From NCBI GenBank assembly GCA_035625415.1, contig DASPPQ010000068.1, positions 23,590 through 87,589 of the forward strand: a DNA stretch of 64,000 bases. The letters are read 5' to 3'. The position numbers and the translations under genes are program-made. This DNA comes from Thermodesulfobacteriota bacterium. Lineage in GTDB: Bacteria; Desulfobacterota; BSN033; UBA1163. Every line of letters starts with the position of its first letter. Position 1 is the stretch's first letter. Of the stretch, positions 971-63,179 are shown in pieces. The notes under the pieces are model-generated. The model made no database searches, was not told the origin of the DNA, and saw nothing but the letters and a program-made list of their open reading frames with translations.

Positions 971-982
971 CTAAAACCCCTT

Positions 983-1131: not shown

Positions 1132-1137
1132 TTACAG

Positions 1138-3519: not shown

Positions 3520-3530
3520 CGTATACTCAC

Positions 3531-3677
3531 CAAACTCCAAATTCCAAATTCCAAATCCCAAATCCCAAGTAAATCCCAAGCACCAATTTCAAAATTTCGG
3601 AACGATTTTATTTGAATTTTGAATTTTGCAGATTGGAGTTTATTTGGAATTTGGTGCTTGTCATTTGGTGCTTTCCT
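3531..3677. repeat. Imperfect palindromic intergenic element with (CCAAAT)n left arm and (ATTTGG)n right arm (family copy B)
   Basis: ccaaattccaaattccaaatcccaaatcccaag...aagcaccaatttc // gaatttggtgcttgtcatttggtgcttt. The arms are reverse complements. Spurious ORFs on both strands translate it. Confidence 0.6.
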
Positions 3678-3679
3678 CA

Positions 3680-5650: not shown

Positions 5651-5658
5651 ATGCTTTT

Positions 5659-19554: not shown

Positions 19555-19754
19555 CCAGGAAGCCTTTATGGCTGCTTATTAAGAAACTTCATTGGTGCCC
19601 TAACAATGATGAATTGCGAGATGAATCAAAGGAGTCCGATATGAATAGAGTACCCGATAGTAAAGAAACCGTGGAGACAGTTCCCTTCAGTTCGGAGCAG
19701 CCGCGATCACTGCGCCGTGTGAAGCCAAGAGGGTTGATAGAAAAGGAAACCGGG

Positions 19755-21803: not shown

Positions 21804-21873
21804 TTTGAAGTGAAGCAAGCCTGCCAATCCACCCCGGTCCAGACCGCGAGCGGTGCAGGCAAGGAGGCATAAT

Positions 21874-22893: not shown

Positions 22894-22959
22894 GTGGGTA
22901 ACGCAAGATCGGGCAGGGATAGCCTTTATAGACATGGAGACATAAGTCCTGTGGGGTTT

Positions 22960-23024
22960 GTCATTCCGGGCTTGACCCGGAATCCAGTTATTTCCCCCCT
23001 GGATTCCTGCTTCGTAGGAATGAC
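22960..23024. repeat. Nested-stem structured element X1 (outer GTCATTCC/GGAATGAC, inner GGAATCCAG/CTGGATTC, two local hairpins)
   Basis: gtcattcc-gggcttgaccc-ggaatccag-ttatttcccccc-ctggattc-ctgcttcgtag-gaatgac. A second copy with compensatory hairpin changes is at 38070-38145. Confidence 0.5.
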
Positions 23025-23087
23025 GTCCTTTGGTGCTATAAATGGCGCTGTGTATAGAACAGGGAAGAATTAATGGGGGAGGGGAGG

Positions 23088-41723: not shown

Positions 41724-41807
41724 GCTCCAATGAATAGAATTCAAGTTTCCAAAAGAAAAAGTCTCGGTCATTGGGATTTGGAATTTAGAATTTGGAATTT
41801 AAGCACC
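41688..41807. repeat. Imperfect palindromic element with CCAAAT arms (family copy D); left arm lies inside the ileS 3' end
   Basis: agcaagcaccaaatcccaagcaccaaacaccaaataa (last 11 codons of ileS) ... cattgggatttggaatttagaatttggaatttaagcacc. Confidence 0.6.
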
Positions 41808-42380: not shown

Positions 42381-42842
42381 ATGCACCCCGTTCTGTTTCA
42401 ATTCGGAACTTTGCGCATTTACGCGTATGGGTTCTTCATCGCCGTGGGTTTTGTCTCCGCCGTGGTCCTTGCCACCTTGAAAATTCGAAAACCAAATACT
42501 GGGATTTCTTTTGAAAACATCGTGGATCTCTTCTTCTACACAGTCCTGTCAGCTCTTATCGGGTCGAGAGTGCTGTTTGTATTGATCAATTTTGACCTTT
42601 GCCGGAACCATCCGATGCAGATATTCAAGATATGGGAAGGAGGCTTGGTCTTTTACGGCGGGCTTGCCTTGGCTGTCATGGTGGCCTTCTGGTATATGAG
42701 GTGGAACCGGTTGCCCGTTTGGAAATTGGCTGATCTTGTTGGCCATTCCCTCTTTTTTTATGTTATTCTATATGAAGAAAAGATATCGGAGATACAAAGT
42801 TGGCTGTTCTTGAAATCGTTAAATATCCTCATCCGATCTTGA
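42381..42842 (+). pseudogene. lgt: Prolipoprotein diacylglyceryl transferase, N-terminal 40% only (C-terminal catalytic half deleted)
   Basis: Residues 1-125 align to Lgt (FGTLRIYAYGFFIAVGF...VWEGGLVFYGGLALAVM...ADLVGHSL). The reading frame then reads unrelated sequence into def. About 60 nt remain before the def start, so the G..NGEL.GR signature region is absent. Confidence 0.6.
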
Positions 42843-48129: not shown

Positions 48130-48282
48130 TACCAAGTTCCAAGCACCAAATCCCAAATAAATTTCAATCACCAAAATCCGAAAAGCCGGGATGGTCATTT
48201 GAGATTGAAATTTGGGCGTAGGGAACGGTTTCAAACCGTTCCCTAAAGGTATTTGGAATTTGTGATTTGGGATTTAAGACAA
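48130..48282. repeat. Imperfect palindromic element with CCAAAT arms (family copy F) enclosing a central REP-like hairpin (48218-48245)
   Basis: accaagttccaagcaccaaatcccaaataaatttcaatcaccaaaatccg ... gtaggg aacggtt tca aaccgtt ccc ... ggtatttggaatttgtgatttgggatttaag. Confidence 0.6.
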
Positions 48283-48946: not shown

Positions 48947-49016
48947 ACCTCGGGACCTGTCGCAAATTGTGAGAGAGGGGCTGAAGTATTTTAAAATTCT
49001 ATTTAGGGAGACAAGA

Positions 49017-49907
49017 ATGGAAGAAGTCATTTATCTCGAGAGGCCAGTTCTTCATGAGCCCTATTTGATCATCGGGTTTGAGGGATGGCCCAATGCAGGA
49101 GAGATTTCCTCTTTCGCTCTTCGGCATTTAATCGATAGTTTAGGGGCAAGAGAATTCGCCTCCATTCCGACAGAGAATTTTTATCAAATGTCTTCCCTGC
49201 GACCAATGGCAGTGATTAAGGAAGGACGACTGATCGAACTGAAGTCTTCGGGCAATCATTTTTATTACGTCAAGGGACTCCCTTCCAACGACCTTATCCT
49301 TTTCTCCGGCGTGGAGCCTCACCTTCGGTGGAACGTTTTTGCTGATCTTATTCTCGATTTGGCTGAGCGATTCCGCGTGACACAAGTTCTTACCATCGGT
49401 GGCACTTACGATTACGTCCCTCACACTTATCCTCCGATGGTCAGCAGCCTGTTCAATCATGAAGAATTGCGAGAAAGGGTGGTCGGGGCCGGGCTGGGGT
49501 TGACGGAATACTCCGGACCCATCAGCATCCACACTTTTATTCTCGAGGCGGCCGGGAAGAGAAATTTGGATGCGATCAGCCTTTGGGGTCATGCCCCACA
49601 ATATCTTCAAACGAGGAATGTAAAAGTGGCCTGCTCCCTCCTTAAGAAACTGATCGATTTGACCGGAATAGAGATCGATCTCTCCGATCTTGAGAAGGCC
49701 GGCGAATACTTCGATCAGCAGATCAACCAATTGGTGGAGGAAGATCCGAAGCTCCAAGAGGTCATCGGCAAGTTAGAAGAAGCCTACAAGGGGTCCGAAA
49801 GAATTCTTCAACCGTTAAGAAAGGAAGAGGGGGCGAAAGAAGACAAAGTGGTCTACATTCAAGCCTTCCTAAAGAAATCGGAGGATGAAGAGAAGAAAGA
49901 TGGGTGA
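49017..49907 (+). CDS. PAC2 (proteasome assembly chaperone 2-like) family protein
   Basis: YLIIGFEGWPNAGEISSFAL...LTIGGTYDYVPH...YSGPISIHT matches the PAC2-family pattern. The start is probably MEEVIYLERP. Confidence 0.5.
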   Translation: MEEVIYLERPVLHEPYLIIGFEGWPNAGEISSFALRHLIDSLGAREFASIPTENFYQMSSLRPMAVIKEGRLIELKSSGNHFYYVKGLPSNDLILFSGVEPHLRWNVFADLILDLAERFRVTQVLTIGGTYDYVPHTYPPMVSSLFNHEELRERVVGAGLGLTEYSGPISIHTFILEAAGKRNLDAISLWGHAPQYLQTRNVKVACSLLKKLIDLTGIEIDLSDLEKAGEYFDQQINQLVEEDPKLQEVIGKLEEAYKGSERILQPLRKEEGAKEDKVVYIQAFLKKSEDEEKKDG

Positions 49908-49958
49908 ATTTTCGGTCACTTGAGCCTCGACCTCTCGGTTCCTTAATTCCTCAAATGC

Positions 49959-50363
49959 TTATTTTGGCTTGCCTGCTGGTCGGGCAGCGAATTCCATGAC
50001 CGTGTAGACGAGTGCCCAGCGCTGCTGCTCAGTGTATTGAGTCCATGCGACCATCCCCGAATTCGGAATCCCCTTCAAAATGACTTCGAAGATTTTCCGA
50101 GGGTCCCCCTTCGTATTGGGCCATTCTTTCAATGCATTTCGGAAATCGCTTGGGGGAGGTTTGAGAACGGCCCCAGCTACTCCTTTTCCATCACCATTGG
50201 AACCGTGACAGGTTGCACAAATCTGATCGTAGATTTTTCTTCCTTCCTTTAGCATTTCGGGCGTCTTCTTGGGAGGCTTCGAATCTGCACCAAAACTGAT
50301 CGGAGCGGTAAGGAAAAGAAAACTAGCCATTACGATCCATGTCCATCTTTTTATTCTCCCCAT
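49959..50363 (-). CDS. Monohaem c-type cytochrome (ActE-like)
   Basis: Signal peptide plus a single CATCHG haem site. Last gene of the module-2 operon. Confidence 0.6.
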   Translation of the reverse strand: MGRIKRWTWIVMASFLFLTAPISFGADSKPPKKTPEMLKEGRKIYDQICATCHGSNGDGKGVAGAVLKPPPSDFRNALKEWPNTKGDPRKIFEVILKGIPNSGMVAWTQYTEQQRWALVYTVMEFAARPAGKPK

Positions 50364-50395
50364 TTTTTTCCTCCTCTACTTTAGAAATTTATTTT

Positions 50396-51691
50396 CTATC
50401 CTGCCACAGGATTCGGGCCAGACTTCTCCCTCTGCTCCTTCTCCGTCTCCCATATGGAGATGACCGGGAAAAGTTTCGAGAAGAGGACGAAAGCCAGAGT
50501 GAACCCTGCAAAAAGGCCAGCCGTCATAGACCACTCCACCCAAGAAGGGCTATAAGCCCCTCGGCCGTAAGGAAGACGGGGTTGGGTGAAAGAGGGAATG
50601 ATGATGAGGAATCGTTCCAGCCACATCCCAATAATGATCGAAATTGACGAGATCAGAAGTCCTGGAATGGTGCGCCGCCAGATGAGCATTGGAAAAGGAA
50701 AGAAAAAACAGAGAACAGTCATCGTCCAAAAGAGAGGAGCGTATTTACCCGTCAGCTTGCTCCATAGGACCGCAAGCTCATAGGAATCGCCTCCATAGCC
50801 TGCCGTCAGGTGTTCGGCAAAAGTAAAGTAGAACCATAGTAGTGTGAAGACGAGTAGCAGCAATCCCATATTATTGAAGTGGTAGGGCGTCAGATAGCCC
50901 TCCAAATGATAAACCTTCCTTAGAACAATGATGACCACAATGATTGTGGCAATCCCCGAAAAGATGGCTCCCGTTACAAAATAGGGGGCAAAGATCGAAC
51001 TATGCCACATGGGCTGTGTCTGCATTCCAAAAACCCAGGAGACCACTGTATGAACACTCACGGCGATAGGGATGACAGCGATACACAAGATGCCTATCGC
51101 CTTTCCCAAATTGCGTTGCTGTCTTTCCGTTCCCATCCACCCGAAGGAGAGGGGCTTATATAGCCATCTTCGGCCCGGGAACCGGTCCCTGAGGAAGGCA
51201 ACGTCAGGGATCATCAGTACCAAAAGGAAAATATTGCTGACGGTGAAGTAGGTCATGATGCACGTAAAATCCCAAATAAGGGGAGACTTAAACTGTGCAT
51301 GGAGGGCCACCCAGTAGAAGAGGTAAGATCGACCGAGGTCGAAGAGGATATTTGTCGGGCCTGCCGCCAGGGCGAAAACAGTCACAGCCTCTGCAGCACG
51401 GCCGAAAGGAGTCCCCCATCGGGCGTGAGTGATTCTTAGCACTGCCGAGACCAGAGCACCCGCATGGCTAATCCCGATGAAGAAGACGAAATTGACAAGG
51501 TAGAGAGCCCATGACACGGGGTGGCCCATCCCGGTCTCTCCTAAACCCTCGATAAATTGCCAGACAAAAGCGATGACAGACCAGAGGACAACCGCTGAAA
51601 GCAAACCTGTCACGATCACAGAACCTCTCCCCCATCGGGTCAGCGGTTCGATCAGGCGGCTATGCTTTTGCGCAACAGCGTCACTGTCCAT
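50396..51691 (-). CDS. NrfD/PsrC-family quinol-interacting membrane subunit (ActC-like)
   Basis: 431 aa, 10 predicted TM helices. [20 protein letters not shown]. 11-nt overlap with the FeS gene. Confidence 0.75.
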   Translation of the reverse strand: MDSDAVAQKHSRLIEPLTRWGRGSVIVTGLLSAVVLWSVIAFVWQFIEGLGETGMGHPVSWALYLVNFVFFIGISHAGALVSAVLRITHARWGTPFGRAAEAVTVFALAAGPTNILFDLGRSYLFYWVALHAQFKSPLIWDFTCIMTYFTVSNIFLLVLMIPDVAFLRDRFPGRRWLYKPLSFGWMGTERQQRNLGKAIGILCIAVIPIAVSVHTVVSWVFGMQTQPMWHSSIFAPYFVTGAIFSGIATIIVVIIVLRKVYHLEGYLTPYHFNNMGLLLLVFTLLWFYFTFAEHLTAGYGGDSYELAVLWSKLTGKYAPLFWTMTVLCFFFPFPMLIWRRTIPGLLISSISIIIGMWLERFLIIIPSFTQPRLPYGRGAYSPSWVEWSMTAGLFAGFTLAFVLFSKLFPVISIWETEKEQREKSGPNPVAG

Positions 51692-52382
51692 CGTCCCATT
51701 CCCCTTCTTTCAAATAGAAGACTTTTGGTTCCGTCCCTAGATCCTCCATCAGCCGAAAGGCACGTTTGCTCTTGGAGAGCTTAGAAACTCTACTTTCGGA
51801 GTCATTCAAATCACCGAAATAGAGGGCTTCGCTGGGACAAGTCTCGACACAAGCGGGAGTAACTTCGCCATCCTTAATCGTTCGGTTCTCTTTCTTTGCA
51901 TTCATCTTGGCTCTTCGAATCCTTTGAATACAAAAATTGCACTTCTCCGTGATGCCCTTTCTCCGGGGGTAGACATCTGGATTCAACCCTTTCTTATACG
52001 CTTCCGGCCAGGAAGGCGGATACCAGTTGAAATAACGCACCGTATAAGGGCAGTTGGAGATACACATCCTCACCCCGATGCAACGGGAATAGACTTGTGC
52101 GACAATGCCTTCCGGATTTTTGTAGGTGGCTTCAACAGGGCAGACCTTGGTACAGGGCGGTTTATCACAATGCATGCAAGGCAGGGGATTGAAGCGCATC
52201 TCCACATTGGGATAGGCTCCCTTGATCTCATGGATGAGATTCATCCAGAATTTTGCCCTTCCCAGTTTGGCGTATTTTTCTCCCATAATGGGAATATTAT
52301 TCTCCTGGCGGCAGGCCACGACGCAGGCCTGACAGGCGGTGCATTTATCTAAATCAATCACCATTCCCCAGCGATACATCAT
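51681..52382 (-). CDS. 4Fe-4S ferredoxin-type subunit (PsrB/ActB2-like), paralog of 287-970
   Basis: [29 protein letters not shown] plus three further Cys clusters. 233 aa. Confidence 0.8.
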   Translation of the reverse strand: MMYRWGMVIDLDKCTACQACVVACRQENNIPIMGEKYAKLGRAKFWMNLIHEIKGAYPNVEMRFNPLPCMHCDKPPCTKVCPVEATYKNPEGIVAQVYSRCIGVRMCISNCPYTVRYFNWYPPSWPEAYKKGLNPDVYPRRKGITEKCNFCIQRIRRAKMNAKKENRTIKDGEVTPACVETCPSEALYFGDLNDSESRVSKLSKSKRAFRLMEDLGTEPKVFYLKEGEWDDGQ

Positions 52383-52478
52383 GAATCCTGTCTCTTAGTC
52401 TTTTTGTCTTACAGTCTCATAGTTTTTTCATTCAAGGGTCTTATTGTCAATTGACCATTCGACCATAACACTACAGGA

Positions 52479-54866
52479 CTATGTGACTTTATACACCTTC
52501 ACCCTGGATGAAAAATAAGAGACAAATCCACCCAGATGATCGTACTCTCTCGCAAGAAGCTCATTTGGATTGATCCCTCGCCCCCTTGCCCACCGGCCAT
52601 AGGCCTTGTGGCCCTGTCCGTAAGGAATATGGATGTGCTTTGGGTGCGTCCCGGGGAAGAGCCTCGCTTTCGCTTTCAGCTTCCCTGCCATCGACTCCAC
52701 CCAGATCAGGTCTCCGTCTTTGATGCCCATTTTTTGTGCAGTTTGCGGATTGATCTCGACCCACGATTCCCACCTCTCATAGAGATGGGGCCCGACGATC
52801 TCTTGGAGATAGGGTTGATTTGCTCCTCTTCCTTCTGCCATGGTCATCAGCTTATAGTCGATGAGATGGAAGGGGTATTCCCTTTCTTCTCCCACCCATC
52901 TCGGTTTTTCGTAATGGGGAAGAAAGGCTCTGTCCCCCCTTGCTTCAACCTTCAACTCCCCCAAAATGTAATCTATATCTTCCGAATTTTTTTTGGAGAT
53001 CTCTTGCAAGCCTCGCTCCATCCCCAAGGAATAGAATTCAAACTTCCCAGAAGGGGTGTTGAATTTCCTTTTCCATTCTCCAAAAGGGTAGAGGGAATCC
53101 CACCAGCCGCCTCGCTCAATTAAAGTCTTCCAGAATTCATCAAAGTCTTCTGCCTTGATGGAGCCTCGTTTGGACGCGAAAACGCCCTTGATCGCCTCTT
53201 TCAAAGCCTCTTGAAAATCTTTCCAGGGAAAAGACTTCGCGACGGTTCCCCCCAAGCCTTTTGCGATTTCGATGATGACATCGCCTGTATTTCTAACATC
53301 ATGGAGAGGAGGGTCAATGGTGGGGCTCCTTAATCCAAACATAGGGAATCCCAAGCCTGGTTCAACATGGTCATCCTGCCAGCGTTCGAAATAGGTTCCG
53401 TCGGGGAGGACAAGATCGGAGAGCATCGTCGTCTCATCCATAAACGGGGAGAAACTGACGATAAAAGGAATCTTCTCTAATGCCTTCTCAAATTTCTCAG
53501 GTTGGGGAAGGCTGAAGACAGGATTGGTATAATAAAGGAAAAGTGTATCAACAGGGTAGGGTTCTCCCTTCAGGATTTTCTCCGGAAGTGCAGAAGGAAG
53601 CTCCGTGGCGAAAGGGAAGGGAGTGCTTCCGGCTCGATCTATGCGCAGTTGGGAAAGACCCCTTAATGCAACTGCATCCCTCTGAACGGCAGGCCAGTTC
53701 TGAAAAGGAGGCTTTCTCTGGAGCAAAAGACCTCCACGGGTATCGATCGACCCAACGAGGGCGTTAAGGCTATCTACAGCCATTTGTGAATAAGTTCCAT
53801 TGGTCTGCATACCCACCCCCCGTCCTGTGACGGCAATGGCGGGCGGGTGAGAAGAAAATTCTTTGGCGATCCGAATAATGATCTCTTCAGGGACCCCCGT
53901 GAAAGAAGAAACCTGCTTAGGTGAATATTCTCTGAGCACCAGGGTCTTAAAACCCATGTGAGTCTTTCCGTCACTGTCCCTCCAATCCTCAAACCCAAAT
54001 GTATGGCGATCAAGAAATTGATGATCGTATTTTTTCTCCTTGATGATCCAGTGGGCAATTCCCAGGGCCAGCGCTCCGTCTGTCCCAGGCCGAACAGGGA
54101 TCCACTGGTCCGCCTTCGATGCTGTGATGGAGAATCTCGGCTCAATCTGGACAAGTTTCCCCCTGACTCCTGGTCTGCCTCTCCTTAGAAACCCATAGCC
54201 CCAAAGATTTCTGATTGAAGGCCTCGATGCCTCCAGAAGGCTCGCTCCAAAGGAGAGGACATAATTTACTTCTTCCCAGTGGATAGCCAAAAAGTCTCTT
54301 ACACCCATCGTGAAGAGATGACCTTTCAGAATACCCTCGGAGCCCCTGGCGGGATTTCCAAGATGGTTTGGAGAACCGAAGGCTTCGACGAACCTTGCCA
54401 TGAGTTCGGCCATGTGACCGCGATATCTTCCTCCCAACACCATCAGATGGTGAGGTCTCCCCTCCAGACGAATGGCCTTCAACCTCCGGGTGACAAGACC
54501 AATTGCTTCCTCCCAGGAGATCTTCTCCCAATTCCCCTCTCCACGCTTCCCTCTTCTTATCATGGGCTGCTGGATTCGATCGGGATCATAAAGGACTTGA
54601 AGCCCTGATTGACCTTTTGGACAGAGACGCCCTCGATTGATCGGGTAATCTTTTATTCCTTCCAGCTTGACTGGCCAATGATTGACTGAGCGTATGCGGA
54701 GACCACAGCCACTCGGACACTGGAGGCAGATTCCTGTCGACCAGTACTCTTCGTAAGGAACCCATTCCCCTTCTTTGGGCAAGGCATGAAGGAGTTCGTC
54801 TGACAGGGCCATCCCAAAGGTCGCCGCACCGATCAATTTTAACAATGTTCTTCTATTAATGTTCAC
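52479..54866 (-). CDS. TAT-exported molybdopterin-oxidoreductase family subunit (PsrA/ActB1-like), paralog of 1138-3519
   Basis: GTG start. NINRRTLLKLIGAATFGMA TAT signal. CLQCPSGCG...CPKG N-terminal Cys motif. 795 aa. Confidence 0.8.
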   Translation of the reverse strand: MNINRRTLLKLIGAATFGMALSDELLHALPKEGEWVPYEEYWSTGICLQCPSGCGLRIRSVNHWPVKLEGIKDYPINRGRLCPKGQSGLQVLYDPDRIQQPMIRRGKRGEGNWEKISWEEAIGLVTRRLKAIRLEGRPHHLMVLGGRYRGHMAELMARFVEAFGSPNHLGNPARGSEGILKGHLFTMGVRDFLAIHWEEVNYVLSFGASLLEASRPSIRNLWGYGFLRRGRPGVRGKLVQIEPRFSITASKADQWIPVRPGTDGALALGIAHWIIKEKKYDHQFLDRHTFGFEDWRDSDGKTHMGFKTLVLREYSPKQVSSFTGVPEEIIIRIAKEFSSHPPAIAVTGRGVGMQTNGTYSQMAVDSLNALVGSIDTRGGLLLQRKPPFQNWPAVQRDAVALRGLSQLRIDRAGSTPFPFATELPSALPEKILKGEPYPVDTLFLYYTNPVFSLPQPEKFEKALEKIPFIVSFSPFMDETTMLSDLVLPDGTYFERWQDDHVEPGLGFPMFGLRSPTIDPPLHDVRNTGDVIIEIAKGLGGTVAKSFPWKDFQEALKEAIKGVFASKRGSIKAEDFDEFWKTLIERGGWWDSLYPFGEWKRKFNTPSGKFEFYSLGMERGLQEISKKNSEDIDYILGELKVEARGDRAFLPHYEKPRWVGEEREYPFHLIDYKLMTMAEGRGANQPYLQEIVGPHLYERWESWVEINPQTAQKMGIKDGDLIWVESMAGKLKAKARLFPGTHPKHIHIPYGQGHKAYGRWARGRGINPNELLAREYDHLGGFVSYFSSRVKVYKVT

Positions 54867-54894
54867 TGCCTAATCCGAATTCGCATAGAGCGCC

Positions 54895-55036
54895 GCGTTT
54901 AAAATCCCAAATCACAAATTTCAAATCGCAAATAAGCACCAATTTCGAATTTCCAATGACCGAACACATTGTATTTCCAATTTGAGCGATTGGAAAATTT
55001 ATTCGAAATTTGGCGTTTGGAATTTGGTGCTTCCGT
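54895..55036. repeat. Imperfect palindromic element with CCAAAT arms (family copy G)
   Basis: aaaatcccaaatcacaaatttcaaatcgcaaataagcaccaatttcgaatttccaatg ... cattggaaaatttattcgaaatttggcgtttggaatttggtgcttccg. Confidence 0.6.
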
Positions 55037-55066
55037 ATCTCTATGCTCTCGCTATGCGCTGCGCGC

Positions 55067-55615
55067 TTAACTGGAGTGGCATGCATAGCAATCCGTCGCG
55101 GCTCCTTTTCTCTTGTGGCAGTCCAGGCACCACTCCATATACAATCGATCAACCATTCTTACAGGGGTATCACTGACACCCGTGACCCCGTGACAGGTGG
55201 AGCAATCGATTTGGCCCTGGATATGAATCCAGTGAGGGAAGACGACAAATTTCGGAAGCTCGTACATCCGATTCCAGGGAATTCTCTTATTCGCTTTCAC
55301 GTATTCAACCACTTTTAGCGCCTCAGGCCTCTTACTGATTGCATCACTCGAATGGCAGGCTCGACAGAGTTCGATGTTTGGAATCCCGGCAGCACGGTGT
55401 TCGCTGGCATGCGAGTGGCAGAAAATACAGTTCAACCTGGCCACTTCTTTGTGGTGGATATGATTGAAGCGGACGGGTTGATCGACAGGCTCACTTTTTA
55501 GAATCGGGAAGACAAAGAAAATTAGAGATTTCATTGGGACCCGGAAACGATGCCATGCAACAGTGATGGTAAGAAGAATCACGAGGACCACCACAAGAAA
55601 GCCAATCTTCTTCAT
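55067..55615 (-). CDS. Pentahaem c-type cytochrome (ActA-like)
   Basis: N-terminal TM anchor. Five CxxCH motifs (CIFCH, CRACH, CSTCH, CLDCH, CYACH). Confidence 0.75.
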   Translation of the reverse strand: MKKIGFLVVVLVILLTITVAWHRFRVPMKSLIFFVFPILKSEPVDQPVRFNHIHHKEVARLNCIFCHSHASEHRAAGIPNIELCRACHSSDAISKRPEALKVVEYVKANKRIPWNRMYELPKFVVFPHWIHIQGQIDCSTCHGVTGVSDTPVRMVDRLYMEWCLDCHKRKGAATDCYACHSS

Positions 55616-55689
55616 AGTTTCAGTTTATTCTCAAACGTCAAAGTCTGTCAACTCAAAATCGGCCACCAACGCTTCACCAGTTCAAATCA

Positions 55690-56610
55690 CTAACTCAGCA
55701 ACCTGTCTAAGGAAAGGAGTGAGATGACGAGGACGGCATAAATATTCAATTTCATGAAGGTGATCCTTAACAAGCGTTTATTGTCATGAGAACTTAGAAA
55801 AATGATGGCACTCCAAAACAGCCAACACGCTGCAGCCACTAATAGAAGATAGCAGAAAAAATAATTCAGAAGTCCGAATAGAGGAATGATCAGAGAAGAA
55901 ACTCCTGTCGCCAAAAGCCATGTGAAGATGATCCGTTTGATCTGTTTCGTCGAGAAGATCTTTATGATGGAAGGAAACCCGACCCTCTCGTAATCTTTTG
56001 AACAATCCAGAAGAAGGAGCCAGAAGTGAGGCACCTGCCAGATAAAGAAGAAGAGAGCGACTCCCCAGATCCGGGGATCAAGGATGTTCCCCGCCCCTGC
56101 TACCCATCCCAAAACCGGGGGAATGGCGCCCACCAGGGCCCCGGGCACCGCTGCAAACGCTATTTTCTGCTTCAGAGGGGTATAGATCAAGTTGTACCAG
56201 AGGACGGCAAAGAGACCTAAAGCCAATGCCGGTTCTCCGGCTCCGAGAAGGAGGATGAGAGCCCCTGAAAGAATCAGGCTTAGAGAAATCCGGAGAGCCG
56301 TCTCAGGATTCAATCTTCCAGAAGGGATGGGCCTTGATTTTGTCCTATCCATCAGTTTGTCTATTTCTCTTTCTTGATATTGATTGAGCGCGCTCGAACC
56401 GCATGCGAGAAGGAAAACCGCCACCGTTGGCACCAGCATATGGATTGTGATCTTTCCCTTTGCAAGAAGATACCCTGTTGCCGCGGTAAGCGTTGCAAGG
56501 AGAGAGATCCTTATTTTTGCGAGGTCAGGGAGGATAGCGAACCACTCTCTCCATACGTAGGCTCTATCCTTCGAAATCTCCCTGACATTTCGTAGCGCCT
56601 GCACAATCAT
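55690..56610 (-). CDS. ctaB: Protohaem IX farnesyltransferase (haem O synthase)
   Basis: UbiA-family polytopic protein, 306 aa. 4-nt overlap with the coxB stop. Confidence 0.85.
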   Translation of the reverse strand: MIVQALRNVREISKDRAYVWREWFAILPDLAKIRISLLATLTAATGYLLAKGKITIHMLVPTVAVFLLACGSSALNQYQEREIDKLMDRTKSRPIPSGRLNPETALRISLSLILSGALILLLGAGEPALALGLFAVLWYNLIYTPLKQKIAFAAVPGALVGAIPPVLGWVAGAGNILDPRIWGVALFFFIWQVPHFWLLLLDCSKDYERVGFPSIIKIFSTKQIKRIIFTWLLATGVSSLIIPLFGLLNYFFCYLLLVAAACWLFWSAIIFLSSHDNKRLLRITFMKLNIYAVLVISLLSLDRLLS

Positions 56611-57527
56611 CCTTTCAAACTCTTTATGAATTCGACGAGTGCGTTCAGTTCCTCCTCGGTTAGGCCTATTTTAGGCATGATAGGTGGGTATCCTTCAACG
56701 TGGACCACGTTAGGCTCGGATATGAATTTGCGGATGAAAGTCTCATCAACGACTACTACCTCCTTCTTCCCACCACTTGTGACCTCTTCCTTTTTTCCGA
56801 AAAGACCCTTAAAACTTGGTCCCACCCGTGGCGTTCCGTCGGTGCTGTGACAGGCAAAGCATCCCTTCTCCTGATAAACCCTGGGTCCTTGAGGGGGACC
56901 CTTCAACGCCACTTCTTCTTTCTTAGTCTGATACCACTTTGTAAACTCCTCTTCGGGGAGGACGACTATTTTTGTAAGCATGTGAGAGTGTTCGAGGCCG
57001 CAATACTGCGAACACAGAACATCAAATGTCCCCACTTCTGTCGGCTGAAACCACAGATAGTTTGTCATTCCAGGAACGACATCCTGTTTGATCCGGAAGG
57101 CGGGGATATAAAAACCATGGATAACATCGAGTGAATTCATTACCAGTTTGACCGGCTTCCCGACGGGAACCCTTAATTCCGTGTCTTGAGTTCCGTTTTC
57201 GTACTGAAACAGCCAGGACCACTGACGGGCGATCACCTTTATTGGCATCGCTCCCGGAGGAACTTTCTTCAAGAACTCGAAGCCTGTCAGCCCGTAGTAG
57301 AACATCGTTAGAACGATCAGCGTCGGTATGACTGTCCAGGTCACTTCCAGCCAGGTGCTCCCTTCAATGTCAACCGGCTTGGGGTGTTTTTCTCGACGGT
57401 AACGAATTAAGAAATAGACCATCAAAAATGTGATGAGTCCCAGAAGAAGAACACAGATCAAGAGGATATATAGAAAGACGTTATCGACAACTCTTCCGGA
57501 TAAGCCTGTGGCTCCTGAGAAAATCAT
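56607..57527 (-). CDS. coxB: Cytochrome c oxidase subunit II with fused C-terminal cytochrome c domain (caa3-type)
   Basis: CuA site CSQYCGLEHSHM. ARQWSWLFQY. C-terminal CFACHS haem motif. Confidence 0.9.
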   Translation of the reverse strand: MIFSGATGLSGRVVDNVFLYILLICVLLLGLITFLMVYFLIRYRREKHPKPVDIEGSTWLEVTWTVIPTLIVLTMFYYGLTGFEFLKKVPPGAMPIKVIARQWSWLFQYENGTQDTELRVPVGKPVKLVMNSLDVIHGFYIPAFRIKQDVVPGMTNYLWFQPTEVGTFDVLCSQYCGLEHSHMLTKIVVLPEEEFTKWYQTKKEEVALKGPPQGPRVYQEKGCFACHSTDGTPRVGPSFKGLFGKKEEVTSGGKKEVVVVDETFIRKFISEPNVVHVEGYPPIMPKIGLTEEELNALVEFIKSLKG

Positions 57528-57826
57528 TTCACACCCCCTCGAAAGGCCAGGTCTGAAAAGGTCAAAAGGATAAAGACGAGAAAAACGGCCATGACAAGAG
57601 GGATAATGACCTTAAAGATGAGAAGTCTTTCGGATCTGAGGTGCATGAAGTAATTTAGAACCAGTCCGGACTTCGTTCCTGCGATCGCCAAAGCGATGAG
57701 AATGGTCCAGCCGCCAAGTGCCATTCCTGCAACGCTAAGCGTCGTTCCTGTCAGGATGACCAACCCCACCCAGACAAGGACATAGGTTCGATACCTTGTA
57801 CCATGGGACTCTTCTTCAGGCTTCAA
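57524..57826 (-). CDS. Cytochrome c oxidase subunit IV (prokaryotic caa3-type small subunit)
   Basis: 100 aa with three TM helices. Lies between coxC and coxB, with a 4-nt overlap with coxB. Confidence 0.5.
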   Translation of the reverse strand: MKPEEESHGTRYRTYVLVWVGLVILTGTTLSVAGMALGGWTILIALAIAGTKSGLVLNYFMHLRSERLLIFKVIIPLVMAVFLVFILLTFSDLAFRGGVK

Positions 57827-57885
57827 TTCAAGTTCCTCCGTAAATCCCCCTACTCCCCCCTTTACTAAAAGGGGGGTGGGGGGGA

Positions 57886-58506
57886 TTACGTAATCAGATA
57901 GAACAGGGGGTATAGAAAGATCCAGATGATATCGACCAGGTGCCAGTATAATCCCGCATTTTCCAAGGGAATGAAGCGCATCTGGTTAAGCCTGTTTTTG
58001 TCAATGAGAATTAACATTACAGAGAGGATGCAGACCCCCACGAGCACATGGAGTCCGTGGAGACCTGTCATCACATAGTAAAGGCCGAAAAAAAGAATCT
58101 CCCCCTTCGCACGGGCCAATAGGGTCGGAGAATTCGGATAAATACCATGTTCAATTTTACCGCCCCATTCAAAGCCCTTGTTCCCGAGAAAGAGGAGGCC
58201 AAGAGCGATTGTAGCCATCAGCAAGACCATTGACAATCTGCGCTCGCCCTTTCGGAGGGCTGTGATGGAGGCTGCTACGCATAAGCTGCTGGTCAGGAGG
58301 ATAATGGTGTTTAACGTGCCGAGAAGGATCTCCAGTTGCCTCGAGGCATGATGAAAATTGACGGGGTCTTTATAGCGGTAGGCAGAGTAGAGGATGAACA
58401 TCCCTCCAAAGAGGAGAAGTTCGGACAGAATGAAAAGCCACATACCCAGCTTGGCGCTGGTATCCTCCCTGGTCTCTTCAAAGACAGCCTCTCGTGCTTC
58501 ATCCAT
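57886..58506 (-). CDS. coxC: Cytochrome c oxidase subunit III
   Basis: COX3-like seven-helix protein. Start placed at MDEAREAVFEE so that it does not overlap coxA. Confidence 0.8.
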   Translation of the reverse strand: MDEAREAVFEETREDTSAKLGMWLFILSELLLFGGMFILYSAYRYKDPVNFHHASRQLEILLGTLNTIILLTSSLCVAASITALRKGERRLSMVLLMATIALGLLFLGNKGFEWGGKIEHGIYPNSPTLLARAKGEILFFGLYYVMTGLHGLHVLVGVCILSVMLILIDKNRLNQMRFIPLENAGLYWHLVDIIWIFLYPLFYLIT

Positions 58507-60136
58507 TATGTTCAAGCTCCTTAAAATCATGAGGGCCATGTTGGATAACCGGGATTTTTTCAAAGTTCTCAGTTGGAGGCGGGGAAGGGATCTGCCATTC
58601 AAGCGTCACTCCGTCCCAAGGATTGTCTTCAGCTTTTTCGCCTTTGAAAAGCCCGTGGAATAGATTGGCAAACATGATGATTAGGCCGGCGATAAGAATC
58701 CACGAGCCGAATGTTGCTGTCAGGTGGAGGGTTCGGAATTGGGGAAGATAATCATAATATCTCCGGGGCATCCCTTCCCAGCCTAGCAGGAGCATGGAAA
58801 AATAGAACATATTGAATCCGATCAACATGATGACCCATGCGCGTATGGCCATTTTTCGGCTGTACATGCGGCCAAACATCTTGGGGAACCAGTAATGGAA
58901 AGCGGCAAAAAGACCGAATCCCATTCCGCCAAAGATAATGTAGTGAAAATGGGCCGGGATCCAATACGTATCGTGGAGGTGGACATTGGGTGCCAGGGCC
59001 CCCTGGATCAAGCCTGTAAGCCCCCCTATCGAAAAGAGGAAGATAAAAGAGAGACAAAAGAGGAGAGGAGGCTCGATGACAATAGAGCCTTTGTGGAGTG
59101 TCGCAACCCAATTGAAGACTTTGATTGCGCTGGGAATGGCTACCAAAAAGGTGAGAAGAGAGAAGAGGAGGTCAGCAAAATCGCTCTGTCCGCTCACGAA
59201 CATATGATGGCCCCAAACGAGGGATCCCACCGCAGCGATGGCCATGCCCGAAAGGGCGATCGCCATATATCCAAAAATCTTCTTCCTGGCAAACACGGGA
59301 ACCACATCCGAGACGATCCCCATTGCAGGAAGGATCATGATATAAGTCGCGGGGTGTGAATAGATCCAAAACATATGTTGGTAAAGAATAGGGTCACCTC
59401 CCTTGGCCGGATCAAACACGCCTACTCCAAAAAATCTTTCGAGAAAGATGAGAACCATTGTAATTCCGATCACCGGTGTAGCAAGAATTTGAACCCATGA
59501 CGTTGAGTAGATTCCCCAGACAAAAAGGGGCAGACGCCTCCAGGTCATTCCGGGAGCCCTTAGTCTGTGAGTCGTTGTCACAAGGTTAATACCCGTCAGA
59601 ATAGAGGACATGCCTAAAATAAAGACACCAAAAACTGCAAGCGGGACGTTGACGGTCGTCCGCAGACTATACGGCGCATAGAATGTCCATCCTGTATCAG
59701 GAGGCCCTTGGCCGGTGAAGACAGAAATAAAGACCACGCCTGCCCCGGTAATGTAAAGCCACCAGGAAAGGAGGTTGATTTTCGGAAAAGCGACATCCCT
59801 TGCGCCGATCTGGATTGGAAGGAAGAAATTTCCAAAAATGGTCGGGATGGCCGGGATGACGACCAGAAAGATCATAATGATCCCGTGCAGCGTGAAGAGG
59901 GAATTGTATGTCTGAGGTTTCATGATGGCCCCTCCGGGTGCAATCATCTCCAGACGCATGAAGAATCCCAGGACAACTCCACTAAAAAAGAAGGCGATGA
60001 CAAAAATGAAGTAAAGAAGGCCGATTCTCTTGTGGTCTAGGGTGAGAATCCATGAAAGGATTCCGTGATATCGCCCTTGGTTATTATAAAAACTGGTTCT
60101 TGGGGCAATGCCCCCCGTAGCTCCGTCCGACGTCAT
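58499..60136 (-). CDS. coxA: Cytochrome c oxidase subunit I
   Basis: 545 aa. WFFGHPEVY-type and HHMF haem/CuB ligand regions (GHHMFVSG, WIPAHFHY). Confidence 0.95.
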   Translation of the reverse strand: MTSDGATGGIAPRTSFYNNQGRYHGILSWILTLDHKRIGLLYFIFVIAFFFSGVVLGFFMRLEMIAPGGAIMKPQTYNSLFTLHGIIMIFLVVIPAIPTIFGNFFLPIQIGARDVAFPKINLLSWWLYITGAGVVFISVFTGQGPPDTGWTFYAPYSLRTTVNVPLAVFGVFILGMSSILTGINLVTTTHRLRAPGMTWRRLPLFVWGIYSTSWVQILATPVIGITMVLIFLERFFGVGVFDPAKGGDPILYQHMFWIYSHPATYIMILPAMGIVSDVVPVFARKKIFGYMAIALSGMAIAAVGSLVWGHHMFVSGQSDFADLLFSLLTFLVAIPSAIKVFNWVATLHKGSIVIEPPLLFCLSFIFLFSIGGLTGLIQGALAPNVHLHDTYWIPAHFHYIIFGGMGFGLFAAFHYWFPKMFGRMYSRKMAIRAWVIMLIGFNMFYFSMLLLGWEGMPRRYYDYLPQFRTLHLTATFGSWILIAGLIIMFANLFHGLFKGEKAEDNPWDGVTLEWQIPSPPPTENFEKIPVIQHGPHDFKELEHNG

Positions 60137-60948
60137 ACCTGTTGCTCCTCTTTAAGACGCTGTCTTCTCCCTTTGAAAAGAAGGAATACGACAAATAATA
60201 TCGCAAAAGATAGGGTGATGGTTCCAGTAACTCTCAACATGTTGAAGACGAGTTTGTTGGCTTTTGGATCGTAACGGAAGCAGAAGCGAACCACCCTCAC
60301 AATGGTGGGCCCAATCCTTCCCTGAGAAGCTTCTACGAACGCCAGCTTAAGATCGAAGGGGAGGGGGTCCGCGCCGTACATGTAGCGGACAACCTTTCCA
60401 TTAGGGGCGAGGATAACTAACGATACTGGATGTTCAAAATCTTCCCCCACTCTTTTGAAATGGAAACCTATGGCATCCGTCAGTTTACGAATATTCTCTT
60501 TGTCTCCTGTCAAGAATCTCCAGACATCCGCAGGGAAAGGTTTTTGGATCATTTTTAGATAAGTTTTTTTCTTTTGCAGGGCAAGATCTGGCTTTTCCGT
60601 TTCATCAAAACTGATGGTTAGAACGGTATATTCCTTGCCAGGTTCGGCGGGCAACTTATCCAGAGCATCTGCCAAATTTTGCAACAGTAAACTACAGACA
60701 TTCGGGCAATGTAAGTAGACTGGAGTGACAATGGTGGGGGTATGAATCAGTTGTCTTAGACTAACGGCAATGCCGTTCTCATCATGGAACGTCAGATCAA
60801 GGGGGACGAGTTGTCCCAATTTTTCATCAATCCCGATTCCGGAAAGATCTTTCGGTTGCTCATGCTCCATGTGACCACTGACAGTGTTGCCGAAAACAAA
60901 GAATCCTATCAGCAAAATGATTAGCTTTATGGTGAACGACGTTTTCAT
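60133..60948 (-). CDS. SCO1/SenC copper chaperone
   Basis: CPNVC thioredoxin-like copper-binding motif. N-terminal TM anchor from MKTSFTIKLIILLIGFFVF. ATGA overlap with coxA. Confidence 0.7.
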   Translation of the reverse strand: MKTSFTIKLIILLIGFFVFGNTVSGHMEHEQPKDLSGIGIDEKLGQLVPLDLTFHDENGIAVSLRQLIHTPTIVTPVYLHCPNVCSLLLQNLADALDKLPAEPGKEYTVLTISFDETEKPDLALQKKKTYLKMIQKPFPADVWRFLTGDKENIRKLTDAIGFHFKRVGEDFEHPVSLVILAPNGKVVRYMYGADPLPFDLKLAFVEASQGRIGPTIVRVVRFCFRYDPKANKLVFNMLRVTGTITLSFAILFVVFLLFKGRRQRLKEEQQV

Positions 60949-60995
60949 TATATCCCTCTCCCTAACGCTCCCCATCGAGAGACTATGTCGCAATT

Positions 60996-61051
60996 GTAGG
61001 GGGCTTGATTCATCAAGCCCCCTAATAGGGCTCAATGAATTGAGCCCCTAC
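60996..61051. repeat. BIME-like pair of convergent REP hairpins upstream of sco1
   Basis: gtagg gggcttga ttca tcaagccccc, then taata, then gggctcaa tgaa ttgagccc ctac. The second is reverse-oriented; its reverse complement is gtaggggctcaattcattgagccc. Confidence 0.65.
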
Positions 61052-61761
61052 AACATATTGTGTGCGCGTATTCGGTAAATCATATTAAGAGACGGTCCCC
61101 AACGGAGAGAGATCAGAGCTAAAATATATTGATGCGTATGTAATAGTAATCTACGGGAAAAGGGTTGATATCGTAAATGGGGAATTCACTGTATTTGGGT
61201 GGAAATCTTAAGGTATTTTTTGGGGGATTCTTCTTATCCAGCATCGCGGACCTTGAAATTTCTCCCTCCAATGATTGGCTCTAACTAAAAGGTGTAAAAG
61301 TTAGAGTTAGAGAATGGGGGACGAGAAAACAATTTTGACCTGCGGGAATTATTTTACACTGAAAGAAAGTTAGAGAGAATTTTGAGAAGATTAGAATTGA
61401 TTTGACATCGAGAATAGATTAGATGTTAAATATAAGCAGGAGGCAATGGGTCTTTCGGCATCTGTCCAGGGGTACGGCGATGGGAGTCAATGAATAAAAG
61501 CCCTTGTAGCTCTAACGTGCCCGCGGCGGGGGTGACTGATTTGGGCTACAAGGGCTTTGCTTTATTCGCTGCCTCATATTAAGGGTTTACATTATGTTTT
61601 AATGTATATCCCCGTGATATTATAACAATGTGTTAAGCAACGGACCTAGCCATTTAGGTGTTGAAAGAAGGGGAACTTCAACTGCCATGATATTTCAGTT
61701 TTGCGAAGTCATTGTCGAATAGGCCTCGTGAGTTCGACCATTTGAGGGGGAGGTTACGGCA

Positions 61762-62319
61762 ATGGAGGTAACTCGATTGGTCCCAAAAGAGAGGAGAGGG
61801 CTTGTCGTTGTGATTACAGGCAACGGTAAGGGAAAGACGACATCCGGTCTCGGTATTGCGGTTCGGGCATGCGGTCACAACATGAGGGTCTGTATCATCC
61901 AGTTCATGAAGGGTGATATCTATGCAGGTGAATGGGATGGCGTAAAGAAGATGGGTTGCGAGGTGGAGCTGATTTCCACTGGCAAAGGGTTTTGCGGTAT
62001 TCAGGGAAATCCCTATCCTTACAAAGAACACAGAGCGAATGCTCAGGAGGCGATCAAATTAACGCATCAGAAAATGGAATCAGGCCGGGAAGATATTCTT
62101 ATATTGGATGAAATCAACAACGCTCTGCACCTTCGACTGGTGGATCTGGAACAGGTCTTAGAAATCATCCGACGCAAGCCCCGTTTGATGCATCTTGTTT
62201 TGACCGGACGGGACGCCCATCCTCAAGTGGTCGAGCTAGCGGATACGGTCAGCGAAATTAAGGAAGTGAAGCACGCCTTTAGCAAGGGGATTGAACCGCA
62301 GCCCGGGATCGATTATTAA
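61762..62319 (+). CDS. cobO: Cob(I)yrinic acid a,c-diamide / cob(I)alamin adenosyltransferase (CobO/BtuR family)
   Basis: GNGKGKTTSGLG P-loop and IQFMKG. 185 aa. Confidence 0.8.
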   Translation: MEVTRLVPKERRGLVVVITGNGKGKTTSGLGIAVRACGHNMRVCIIQFMKGDIYAGEWDGVKKMGCEVELISTGKGFCGIQGNPYPYKEHRANAQEAIKLTHQKMESGREDILILDEINNALHLRLVDLEQVLEIIRRKPRLMHLVLTGRDAHPQVVELADTVSEIKEVKHAFSKGIEPQPGIDY

Positions 62320-62366
62320 TAGTCGCGCGGGCAGGTCCCTGAAAGCAATTTCATGGTGTTTCTTTT

Positions 62367-63179
62367 GTGATTCCAAGCCAGGAGGTGGAATTGACTTTAC
62401 TGCAAGCAGTCATACTCGGATTGGCCCAAGGTCTGGGAGAATTCTTGCCCATATCCAGTTCAGCCCATTTAGTCCTGATTCCCTGGCTTTTCATGTGGAA
62501 GGATCCCGGGCTTACTTTCGATGTCGCCCTGCATATCGGCACGCTTGTTGCCGTCGTCATTTACTTCTGGAAGGACTGGTGGCAATTAATCATAAAAGGC
62601 TTTACAGATGCTCGAAGTGTAACAGGGCGATTGTTTTGGTATTTGGTTGCGGCAAGTGTGCCTGGAGCGGCTGCGGGATTTTTTTTCGAAAAAAAGGCCG
62701 AAACTGTCTTCAGATCCCCTGTTCTTATTGCCGCGATGTTGATCGTGATGGGCATTTTTCTTTACTGGGCAGATCGCAGAAGCGCCAAGAATATAGAGAT
62801 GACCCATATCACTTTTAGGACAAGCATCCTGATCGGGATATCGCAGGCGCTGGCGATCATTCCGGGGGTTTCCCGTTCGGGCATTACGATGACGACAGGA
62901 CTGCTGACGGGAACGACCAGAGAAGGGGCAGCCAGGTTTTCGTTCTTGTTGTCAGCTCCCATCATCTTCGGCGCTGCTATGGTGAAACTGCCGGAGGTGA
63001 TTTCGAATTCGTCTCTGATTACTGTAAATTTTGCGACGGGGATGCTGGTCTCTTGTGTTACCGGCATAATGAGTATTGGTTTTCTGCTTCGGTATGTTCA
63101 AACCAAAAATTTCTTACCATTCGCCTGGTATAGGTTTATATTGGGTGGAGTAGTGATAATAATTGCGCTATCGCGGTAA
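62367..63179 (+). CDS. uppP: Undecaprenyl-diphosphatase
   Basis: LLQAVILGLAQGLGEFLPISSSAHL and PGVSRSGITMT are BacA/UppP motifs. Confidence 0.9.
   Translation: MIPSQEVELTLLQAVILGLAQGLGEFLPISSSAHLVLIPWLFMWKDPGLTFDVALHIGTLVAVVIYFWKDWWQLIIKGFTDARSVTGRLFWYLVAASVPGAAAGFFFEKKAETVFRSPVLIAAMLIVMGIFLYWADRRSAKNIEMTHITFRTSILIGISQALAIIPGVSRSGITMTTGLLTGTTREGAARFSFLLSAPIIFGAAMVKLPEVISNSSLITVNFATGMLVSCVTGIMSIGFLLRYVQTKNFLPFAWYRFILGGVVIIIALSR

Follow-up and report, generated by a model that had tools for sequence, protein, structure and literature searches.

An alternative complex III-like module without ActD beside a caa3-type oxidase: a candidate menaquinol-to-oxygen chain in an uncultured Thermodesulfobacteriota bacterium

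Gene clusters for alternative complex III (ACIII) are known to occur beside those of oxygen reductases, and direct electron transfer from ACIII to a caa3-type oxidase has been established (PMC5928083, PMC3903129). The ActD subunit has been described as exclusive to ACIII, conserved across species and proposed to act as a coupling element (PMC5928083). Several variants have been described. An actAB1B2CDE arrangement, in which ActF is missing and ActB is split into ActB1 and ActB2, was found next to an oxidase in Nitrospirales and "other phyla" (PMC12342949), a split B1 bearing the FS0 motif was reported in the act clusters of iron oxidisers (PMC4643136), and species with only one quinol-binding subunit were also noted (PMC3543383). 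In ACIII as in Qrc, the [3Fe-4S] site adjoins the quinol pocket (PMC6303296). Here we describe an eleven-gene cluster in which oxidase genes are joined to an ACIII-like module without ActD, located in a stretch of 64,000 nt (hereafter the window) from a Thermodesulfobacteriota bacterium (GCA_035625415.1, contig DASPPQ010000068.1, positions 23,590-87,589 of the forward strand).

The cluster is a variation on the known ACIII-oxidase arrangement and not a new kind of system, and we consider it fairly probable that its predicted products form a menaquinol-to-cytochrome c-to-A2-type caa3 chain, made of two membrane complexes in series. No description of an ActD-less, oxidase-linked form was found in the literature, although an earlier mention is possible in the key surveys (Refojo 2010/2013, Venceslau 2010). 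The data on the host genome are those of the 64-kb window, the loci of relatives were seen with 10 kb flanks, and functional assignments throughout rest on homology and conserved gene order.

Gene order and subunits of the cluster

The list of open reading frames (ORFs) and profile searches gave eleven minus-strand ORFs between 61035 and 49959, in the order sco-coxI-III-IV-II-ctaB-pentahaem-large subunit-FeS-NrfD-monohaem c, where FeS stands for the iron-sulfur subunit (Table 1). This order and orientation, as well as the family identities of all eleven proteins (profile searches and motif checks), had been proposed in an initial annotation and were recovered here. That annotation also described the genes as packed with overlaps of 4-11 nt, which holds for five of the ten junctions (sco/coxI, 4 nt; coxI/coxIII, 8 nt, with the ATG at 58506; coxIV/coxII, 4 nt; coxII/ctaB, 4 nt; FeS/NrfD, 11 nt), whereas the other five are gaps of 32-200 nt: 59 nt between cox3 and cox4, 74 nt before the pentahaem gene actA, 200 nt between the pentahaem and large-subunit genes, 96 nt, and 32 nt between the NrfD and monohaem genes. 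The FeS/NrfD overlap is kept in relatives, at -8/-11 nt.

Table 1. Features of the window discussed in the text, in window coordinates. TAT, twin-arginine translocation.
Feature	Position	Strand	Observations
Sco-like copper chaperone	60133..61035	-	PF02630 SCO1/SenC 3.4e-10; CPNVC at residue 110; N- and C-terminal hydrophobic segments
Oxidase subunit I, A2 subtype	58499..60136	-	PF00115 2.8e-144; TIGR02891 650 bits (cutoff 670.75)
Oxidase subunit III	57886..58506	-	PF00510 1.2e-24; ORF extends to 58602
GC-rich hairpin, cox3-cox4 gap	57827..57885	-	Fold -28.7 kcal/mol, without U-run tail; not in closest relative L027
caa3-type subunit IV	57524..57826	-	TIGR02229 49.1 bits (cutoff 37.25 exceeded); PF03626 7e-11
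Subunit II with C-terminal cytochrome c domain (IIc)	56607..57527	-	TIGR02866 181 bits (cutoff 147.7); PF00116, PF02790, PF00034
Haem O synthase-like UbiA protein, CtaB/CyoE-like	55690..56610	-	PF01040 1.7e-47; TIGR01473 198.9 bits (under 210.3 cutoff)
ActA-like pentahaem cytochrome c	55067..55615	-	Five CxxCH; one N-terminal hydrophobic segment (membrane anchor)
Palindromic repeat, pentahaem/large-subunit gap, 200 nt	54867..55066	-	Fold -60.3 kcal/mol; long imperfect palindrome
ActB1/QrcB-like TAT-exported molybdopterin-family subunit, 795 aa	52479..54866	-	RRTLLK at residue 5; PF04879, PF00384, PF01568
ActB2/QrcC-like FeS subunit, 233 aa	51681..52382	-	Three [4Fe-4S] motifs and one of [3Fe-4S] type; without signal peptide
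ActC-like NrfD-family quinol-interacting membrane subunit, 431 aa	50396..51691	-	6f0k_C (ActC) 6.2e-74 over residues 6-417
ActE-like class I monohaem cytochrome c, 134 aa	49959..50363	-	One CATCH; N-terminal signal or anchor; no lipobox cysteine
Module 1	4186 down to window start (including 287-4186)	-	Pentahaem, large subunit, FeS (287-970), truncated NrfD

The oxidase half has the features of an A2-type caa3 enzyme. Subunit I, whose best solved match is the Thermus caa3 chain 2yev_A (3e-123), carries the CuB and haem ligands together with YSHPAT (residue 259) and HHMF (residue 310), motifs that make up the A2 signature in the classification of these oxidases. Subunit II has the CuA motif CSQYCGLEHSHM at residue 172 and, in its fused cytochrome c domain, the haem site CFACH at residue 223, and subunits III and IV are both present. 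The haem composition implied by the name caa3 is an assumption made from this subunit architecture. As for the gene starts, the longest sco ORF begins with the TTG at 61035, inside a hairpin, and the ATG at 60948 is preceded by a purine-rich Shine-Dalgarno-like sequence; the latter is the likely start and would give a protein of 271 aa (269-274 aa in relatives). Similarly, cox3 probably starts at the ATG at 58506 and not at 58602, its relatives being about 198 aa long.

In the Act-like half, ActA, the C-terminal domain of ActB, ActC and ActE are among the best solved matches of four subunits, in agreement with the relationship to ACIII proposed at first. The pentahaem protein, membrane-anchored like ActA, has four ActA chains as its best solved matches (8k9e_A at 5.7e-27, 6lod_A, 6btm_A and 6f0k_A). 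The FeS subunit is closest to the ActB C-terminal domain (6f0k_B residues 797-1023, 2.4e-63), ahead of ArrB and PsrB, to which it is also homologous. Its Cys motifs lie at residues 14, 69, 101 (CxxVxxCxxxC) and 148/178 and predict the one [3Fe-4S] and three [4Fe-4S] clusters of ActB2; the three-Cys motif CIGVRMCISNC aligns to CIGTRYCSNNC of Rhodothermus marinus ActB, and the CPY tyrosine is common to this subunit and ACIII, as is the [3Fe-4S] motif. The membrane subunit is matched by three further ActC chains at about 1e-64 (to 7e-64), its match to ActF is weak, and it has neither a PsrC match among solved structures nor a QrcD model match at E<0.001. When the residue list of R. marinus ActC (PMC8076601, PMC5928083) was mapped onto it, 18 of the 23 functional residues were kept: 16 of 19 in the proton channels (11/13 in the cytoplasmic and 5/6 in the periplasmic half-channel, including Glu394/Arg395) and two of the four at the quinol site (His139, Ser164, Asp169, Asp253). 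The last gene encodes a monohaem cytochrome c, as ActE is, which matches 6h5l_B first (3.8e-18) and then the ActE chains 6lod_E (1.5e-10) and 6f0k_E (1.4e-7). It has no lipobox cysteine, which sets it apart from the lipid-anchored ActE of R. marinus.

The same subunits could be read as a complex that works in the direction of Qrc, in which periplasmic low-potential cytochromes, reduced through hydrogen or formate oxidation, would deliver electrons to menaquinone and feed the quinone pool instead of an oxidase. Indeed, QrcABCD of Desulfovibrio/Nitratidesulfovibrio vulgaris shares with the Act-like half a four-subunit layout with a multihaem cytochrome c, a molybdenum-family protein without Mo ligand, a four-cluster FeS protein whose [3Fe-4S] is the proximal one and an NrfD protein of ten helices, the large subunit being split and ActD and ActF missing in both. 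The host phylum is the same, the window also holds a DsrP-containing cluster, and the highest model scores relative to cutoff are those of QrcA (88.5 bits for the pentahaem protein, cutoff 180), QrcB (316/440 for the large subunit) and QrcC (276.9 bits for the FeS subunit, cutoff 400). However, all these scores fall below their cutoffs and QrcD gave no match, against E-values of 1e-64 to 6e-74 for ActC chains; the cytochrome has five haems and not the six of hexahaem QrcA; FS0 is kept in the large subunit, whereas QrcB is described as being without redox cofactors (PMC13059093); and the genes are linked to a class I monohaem cytochrome c and an oxidase, not to a tetrahaem cytochrome c3 or a hydrogenase. 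We consider the Qrc direction unlikely.

The large subunit and the place of the complex in the ACIII family

ActB is split into two genes, as the initial annotation had it, and the larger product keeps much of a molybdoenzyme. Its FS0 motif, CX2CX3CX27C at residues 47-82, accounts for the only four Cys of the protein, so that no cysteine is left that could bind molybdenum. The column of the ArrA Mo-ligand Cys is occupied by the Gly of RGSEG, a motif invariant in 10 orthologues, and by Trp in the large subunit of the second Act-like module of the window (module 1, described below). Among 35 further large subunits from ActC-like loci, FS0 is almost always kept and the ligand loop is hypervariable; two of them (L056 and L057) have a Cys elsewhere in this loop. 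The solved matches are ArrA (6cz7, 1.8e-99, full length), PsrA of Thermus (4e-66) and ActB (1.7e-13), and all scores against NCBIfam equivalog models are below cutoff, QrcB being the best in relative terms, ahead of PhsA (322/694) and ArrA (368/1600). The two pterin-binding Pfam domains score 115 bits (PF00384) and 57.5 bits (PF01568), against 50.7 bits and no PF01568 match for the fused ActB of locus L106.

Whether this subunit groups with Psr/Phs reductases rather than with ActB, a question left by the initial annotation, receives a double answer: by raw similarity it does, ArrA and PsrA being closest, but functionally it does not, as the Mo-ligand Cys is missing and the loop is hypervariable. 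Because of the missing ligand it is not a bona fide Psr/Phs reductase. A bona fide Psr/Phs/Arr identity was rejected on this ground and on the sub-cutoff scores. Neither a Cys (or Sec) ligand, nor equivalog-level similarity, nor, among solved structures, a PsrC/ArrC-type anchor was found. The subunit is assigned to the ActB1/QrcB type, with the catalytic ligand predicted to be lost, and is less degenerate than canonical ActB1. By analogy with the export of complex iron-sulfur molybdoenzymes, it is probably a scaffold and a TAT export carrier for the FeS subunit, a role suggested because the latter has no signal peptide of its own, and it may hold one [4Fe-4S] cluster.

A working Mo/W-bisPGD (molybdenum or tungsten bis-pyranopterin guanine dinucleotide) enzyme of the Psr/Phs/Arr lineage, perhaps with Ser as ligand and turning over a substrate in the periplasm, for example an oxyanion of sulfur or arsenic, has in our judgement only a slight chance of being the right description. 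It would account for the full-length similarity to ArrA and that to PsrA, for the TAT signal, FS0 and both pterin-binding domains, kept in the order known from these enzymes (2VPZ, 6CZ7) and scoring above a fused ActB of canonical type, and for the invariant Ser that adjoins the former ligand column within RGSEG; two distant homologues also keep a Cys at the ligand position. Against it, there is no Cys outside FS0, the substrate-site residues of the ArrA structure are not kept except for the RY pair, the ligand loop is wholly different among this module, module 1 and other family members, and the ArrA and PhsA scores are far under cutoff. Moreover, the three partner subunits are of ACIII type, with a membrane subunit of ActC type and pentahaem and monohaem subunits that Psr, Phs and Arr do not have.

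The two homologues with a Cys at the PsrA Mo-ligand column (RCLHPE / RCLAPE) are found in Methylomirabilia-type loci, L031 (10001-12415) and L103 (6927-9335), at 37-40% identity, and several genes for multi-domain class I cytochromes c lie downstream of theirs. They may be still-catalytic relatives of this large-subunit family.

The absence of ActD and ActF equivalents, noted at the outset, extends from the cluster to the window and to the flanks of relatives, where none was detectable. A single Pfam-verified ActD (PF11821, 106.6 bits; L106:4934-5506) served as tblastn probe; with it, about 27 distant loci proved to have an ActD-like sequence behind the NrfD gene, and neither the window nor any of the orthologous loci L001-L035 gave one. 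There is no unassigned ORF in the 32 nt between the NrfD and monohaem genes. Similarly, tblastn and phmmer detected no ActF, either in the window or in orthologous loci: each orthologous locus has one NrfD-like gene, and matches of the ActF query map onto the ActC-like gene itself.

A neighbour-joining tree was built from 108 membrane subunits and rooted on the DsrP of the window, with 100 bootstraps on 55 of the sequences; it is distance-based, and this DsrP is the sole curated outgroup among Qrc/Psr/Dsr references. The oxidase-linked clade, which holds the window sequence, is monophyletic in 100/100 replicates. All ActD-positive loci, together with the fused-ActB locus and R. marinus ActC, form a clade that comes out as monophyletic in 99/100 and excludes the window clade, the two being sisters in only 56/100 replicates. 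The membrane subunit hence does not group with the ActC of ActD-bearing complexes, which places the complex outside ACIII in the strict sense. From this topology, the complex is taken to represent a separate ActD-less lineage of the broad ACIII family and not a recently reduced canonical ACIII.

Compared with the ACIII-caa3 pairs of R. marinus (6F0K) and Flavobacterium johnsoniae (6BTM), the cluster has the same N-anchored pentahaem ActA and ActE-like monohaem cytochrome c, the same FeS domain, in which three [4Fe-4S] motifs are joined by one of [3Fe-4S] type, and the same ten-helix ActC-type subunit with most proton-channel residues; the genes are likewise linked to those of an A2-type caa3 oxidase, subunit II of which bears a cytochrome c domain. 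It differs by the absence of ActD and ActF, the split ActB, the much less degenerate B1 (FS0, TAT signal, full-length ArrA similarity), two changed quinol-site residues, the position of the membrane subunit in the tree, and the oxidase genes, which lie upstream and not downstream, in the order I-III-IV-II. With the actAB1B2CDE form of Nitrospirales and the ActF-bearing form of iron-oxidising Beta-/Zetaproteobacteria it shares the split B1/B2, the CX2CX3CX27C motif in B1 and an oxygen reductase encoded beside the act genes (PMC12342949, PMC4643136), and with the former also the missing ActF. These split-ActB variants keep ActD, however, and the oxidase neighbouring the Nitrospirales genes is bd-like, whereas that of the window is of the haem-copper caa3 type.

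Both architectures coexist in one organism at L106 (448-12392), where a fused-ActB cluster (ActA, a 928-aa ActB, ActC, ActD, ActF-like) is followed in tandem by a split-type cluster (ActA, B1, B2, ActC, ActD-like, cytochrome c).

Linkage of the two halves and a proposed electron path

A look-up of the large subunit by exact sequence gave no contig. The protein has 2946 homologues at E<=1e-20, the best 120 of which are 75-85% identical and, where named, belong to Thermodesulfobacteriota and Syntrophaceae metagenome-assembled genomes (MAGs). A scan of one genome per species gave 29 loci from uncultured Syntrophaceae, Thermodesulfobacteriota and "delta proteobacterium" MAGs, plus one locus from Methylomirabilia. 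The contiguity of sco, ctaB and the oxidase genes with the Act-like genes, first reported for the window, proved to be conserved: in 20 of the 23 species-level loci with enough upstream sequence, the order sco-coxI-III-IV-II-ctaB-actA-B1-B2-C is kept, at 70-87% identity of the large subunit. Such conserved adjacency argues for a functional link between the two halves.

The monohaem gene follows in 17 related loci. In some relatives it is preceded by an insertion of about 2 kb: in L012 (14521-16464), L030 and L015, a gene for a 647-aa protein of biotin carboxylase/biotin carrier type lies on the same strand between the ActC-like and monohaem genes.

In the proposed chain, the first complex would be a five-subunit, ACIII-related quinol:cytochrome c oxidoreductase. 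Menaquinol would be oxidised at a periplasm-side site of the ActC-like subunit, beside the [3Fe-4S] cluster of the FeS subunit, and electrons would then travel along the three [4Fe-4S] clusters, reach the pentahaem cytochrome anchored in the membrane and continue to the monohaem cytochrome c. The second complex, the A2-type caa3 oxidase, would take them up through subunit II's cytochrome c domain and pass them via CuA to the binuclear centre, where O2 would be reduced. Sco and CtaB would be assembly factors, for copper insertion and haem O supply, respectively. In a host of an anaerobic lineage, such a chain may serve microaerobic energy conservation, oxygen defence, or both.

Several observations weigh against this chain, and some of them concern the tie between its halves. 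A promoter-like site (TTGACA-18-TAAACT, 10/12 matches) lies directly upstream of actA in the 74-nt gap, three relatives (L010, L015, L023) carry the Act-like half without an oxidase within 5-9 kb upstream, the two halves are separated by an insertion of 3.8 kb in a fourth (L009), and the monohaem gene is missing in a subgroup of five (L002, L005, L007, L008, L029). As for the biochemistry, no ctaA, for haem A synthase, was found among the ORFs scanned in the 64-kb window, the complex has neither the ActD nor the ActF of ACIII, and two of the three charged quinol-site residues are changed (His139->Asp and Asp253->Val), changes that are conserved in relatives.

Further afield, a metagenome scan with the membrane-subunit alignment gave 80 loci of 42-74% identity. 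Three short same-clade contigs being set apart, the remaining 77 ActC-like loci are more distant (42-59% identity), and no cox1 was found in their flanks. The gene set seen most often among distant loci runs pentahaem-large subunit-FeS-NrfD; ActD may be present or not, and in many cases genes for multi-domain class I cytochromes c come next. High-potential acceptors as the output would fit this four-gene module with its class I cytochromes c. The same loci, together with the promoter-like site and the relatives in which the halves are apart, could also mean that oxidase and Act-like genes are independent neighbours, the Act-like complex serving other periplasmic acceptors (c-type cytochromes, metal or nitrogen-oxide reductases). 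We regard such independence as rather unlikely, and equally doubtful is its corollary, an oxidase fed by soluble cytochromes from periplasmic dehydrogenases as in Desulfovibrio. Against both stand the order and orientation kept in most relatives, the ActE-like monohaem cytochrome c with which the cluster closes, and the ACIII-oxidase linkage with direct electron transfer established in other phyla (PMC5928083). Furthermore, promoter-like and terminator-like hits in the region are not above those in shuffled sequence, so that such a scan does not settle the operon structure, which had first been taken as consistent with co-transcription of a chain that would bypass bc1.

A bolder proposal keeps the caa3 oxidase as the end of the chain and changes its beginning: the large subunit would have kept the ability to bind Mo/W-bisPGD, or else FS0 would be the point of entry, and a substrate in the periplasm would be oxidised, its electrons running through the ACIII-type haem wire to caa3. 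In a milder version, the ActD/ActF-less, oxidase-linked lineage would represent the ancestral state of ACIII, ActD being dispensable for quinol:cytochrome c activity. We hold this proposal to be very unlikely and retain the menaquinol-to-oxygen chain.

Module 1, chromosomal setting and significance

The window contains a second Act-like module, module 1, whose NrfD gene is cut by the window start (about 94 residues visible). The initial annotation had stressed blocks close to identity between the FeS and NrfD proteins of the two modules and proposed a fairly recent duplication. The shared block is real, but it corresponds, in the N-terminal part of the FeS subunit, to the first cluster-binding motif, which is nearly identical in R. 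marinus ActB too, and overall FeS identity is only 61.5%. The recent duplication had to be abandoned: identity between the modules is 35-61%, with 34.5% in the pentahaem protein and 44% in the large subunit, and module-1-type sequences lie in a different membrane-subunit clade. The two modules are read as old paralogues.

The FeS subunit of module 1 has a full four-Cys motif of [4Fe-4S] type where that of the cluster, ACIII and Qrc have the three-Cys [3Fe-4S] type, so that the quinone-proximal cluster may not have the same potential in both modules. Directly upstream of module 1, 4346-7067 of the minus strand holds genes for a tetrahaem cytochrome c (four CxxCH), a DsrO-like FeS protein with a TAT signal (183.7 bits, cutoff 200) and DsrP (403.9 bits, above 350); neither dsrM nor dsrK was found near this DsrP cluster. 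The order FeS-NrfD-pentahaem-large subunit-FeS-NrfD recurs in the metagenome loci L036, L040, L059 and L108.

Two gaps of the eleven-gene cluster hold hairpins (Table 1). Both are treated as variable insertions because neither is conserved in the closest relative, L027, where the pentahaem/large-subunit gap is about 93 nt long instead of 200 nt. A regulatory role was rejected for both, since the closest relatives lack them or differ in them and since one is a member of a family of dispersed repeats; the cox3-cox4 hairpin is probably a variable intergenic insertion. The dispersed family is an intergenic palindromic repeat with arms of the type GCACCAAATTCCAAA / TTTGGAATTTGGTGC and has copies at 3520-3680, 41690-41800, 48140-48275 and 54867-55066, one of which lies ahead of the gene for the module 1 large subunit. 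An inverted repeat (61482-61573) with 34-nt arms, 76% complementary, and T-rich flanks is found about 500 nt upstream of the sco start, within a region of about 800 nt without a convincing gene. It could be a bidirectional terminator insulating the cluster or part of an unannotated small RNA. It has no Rfam match, and none was found anywhere in 49000-62500 at E<=0.1.

Within the window, the cluster is flanked by housekeeping genes (IleRS, LspA, Def, Fmt, RsmB, Rpe, CobA, BacA), and GC content is unremarkable; the locus is core chromosome and not an island. A different composition is seen in kdpABC and the following porin-like gene (17725-24383), with a GC of 0.53-0.57 versus 0.46-0.50 in the rest of the window, and this region may have been acquired horizontally. 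The lgt ORF (42381-42842) encodes 153 aa only, covers positions 1-120 of the 240-position PF01790 profile and then overlaps def; it may be a truncated or frameshifted gene or an assembly error.

ACIII was proposed to be a proton pump in which ActD would be the coupling element and ActF would provide a second channel, and both roles are still proposals. The cluster described here is a natural relative without ActD and ActF, placed beside a caa3 oxidase and conserved in about twenty species-level lineages, and would offer a minimal system in which these roles can be addressed. Its large subunit, intermediate between the working Arr/Psr enzymes and the degenerate ActB1, informs the origin of ACIII and Qrc from molybdoenzymes. 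Finally, the uncultured Syntrophaceae-like Thermodesulfobacteriota of peat, soil and groundwater are usually deemed anaerobes. That they encode, in the core chromosome, all parts of a candidate menaquinol-to-oxygen chain has a bearing on how they tolerate oxygen and on how carbon is turned over where oxic and anoxic zones meet.

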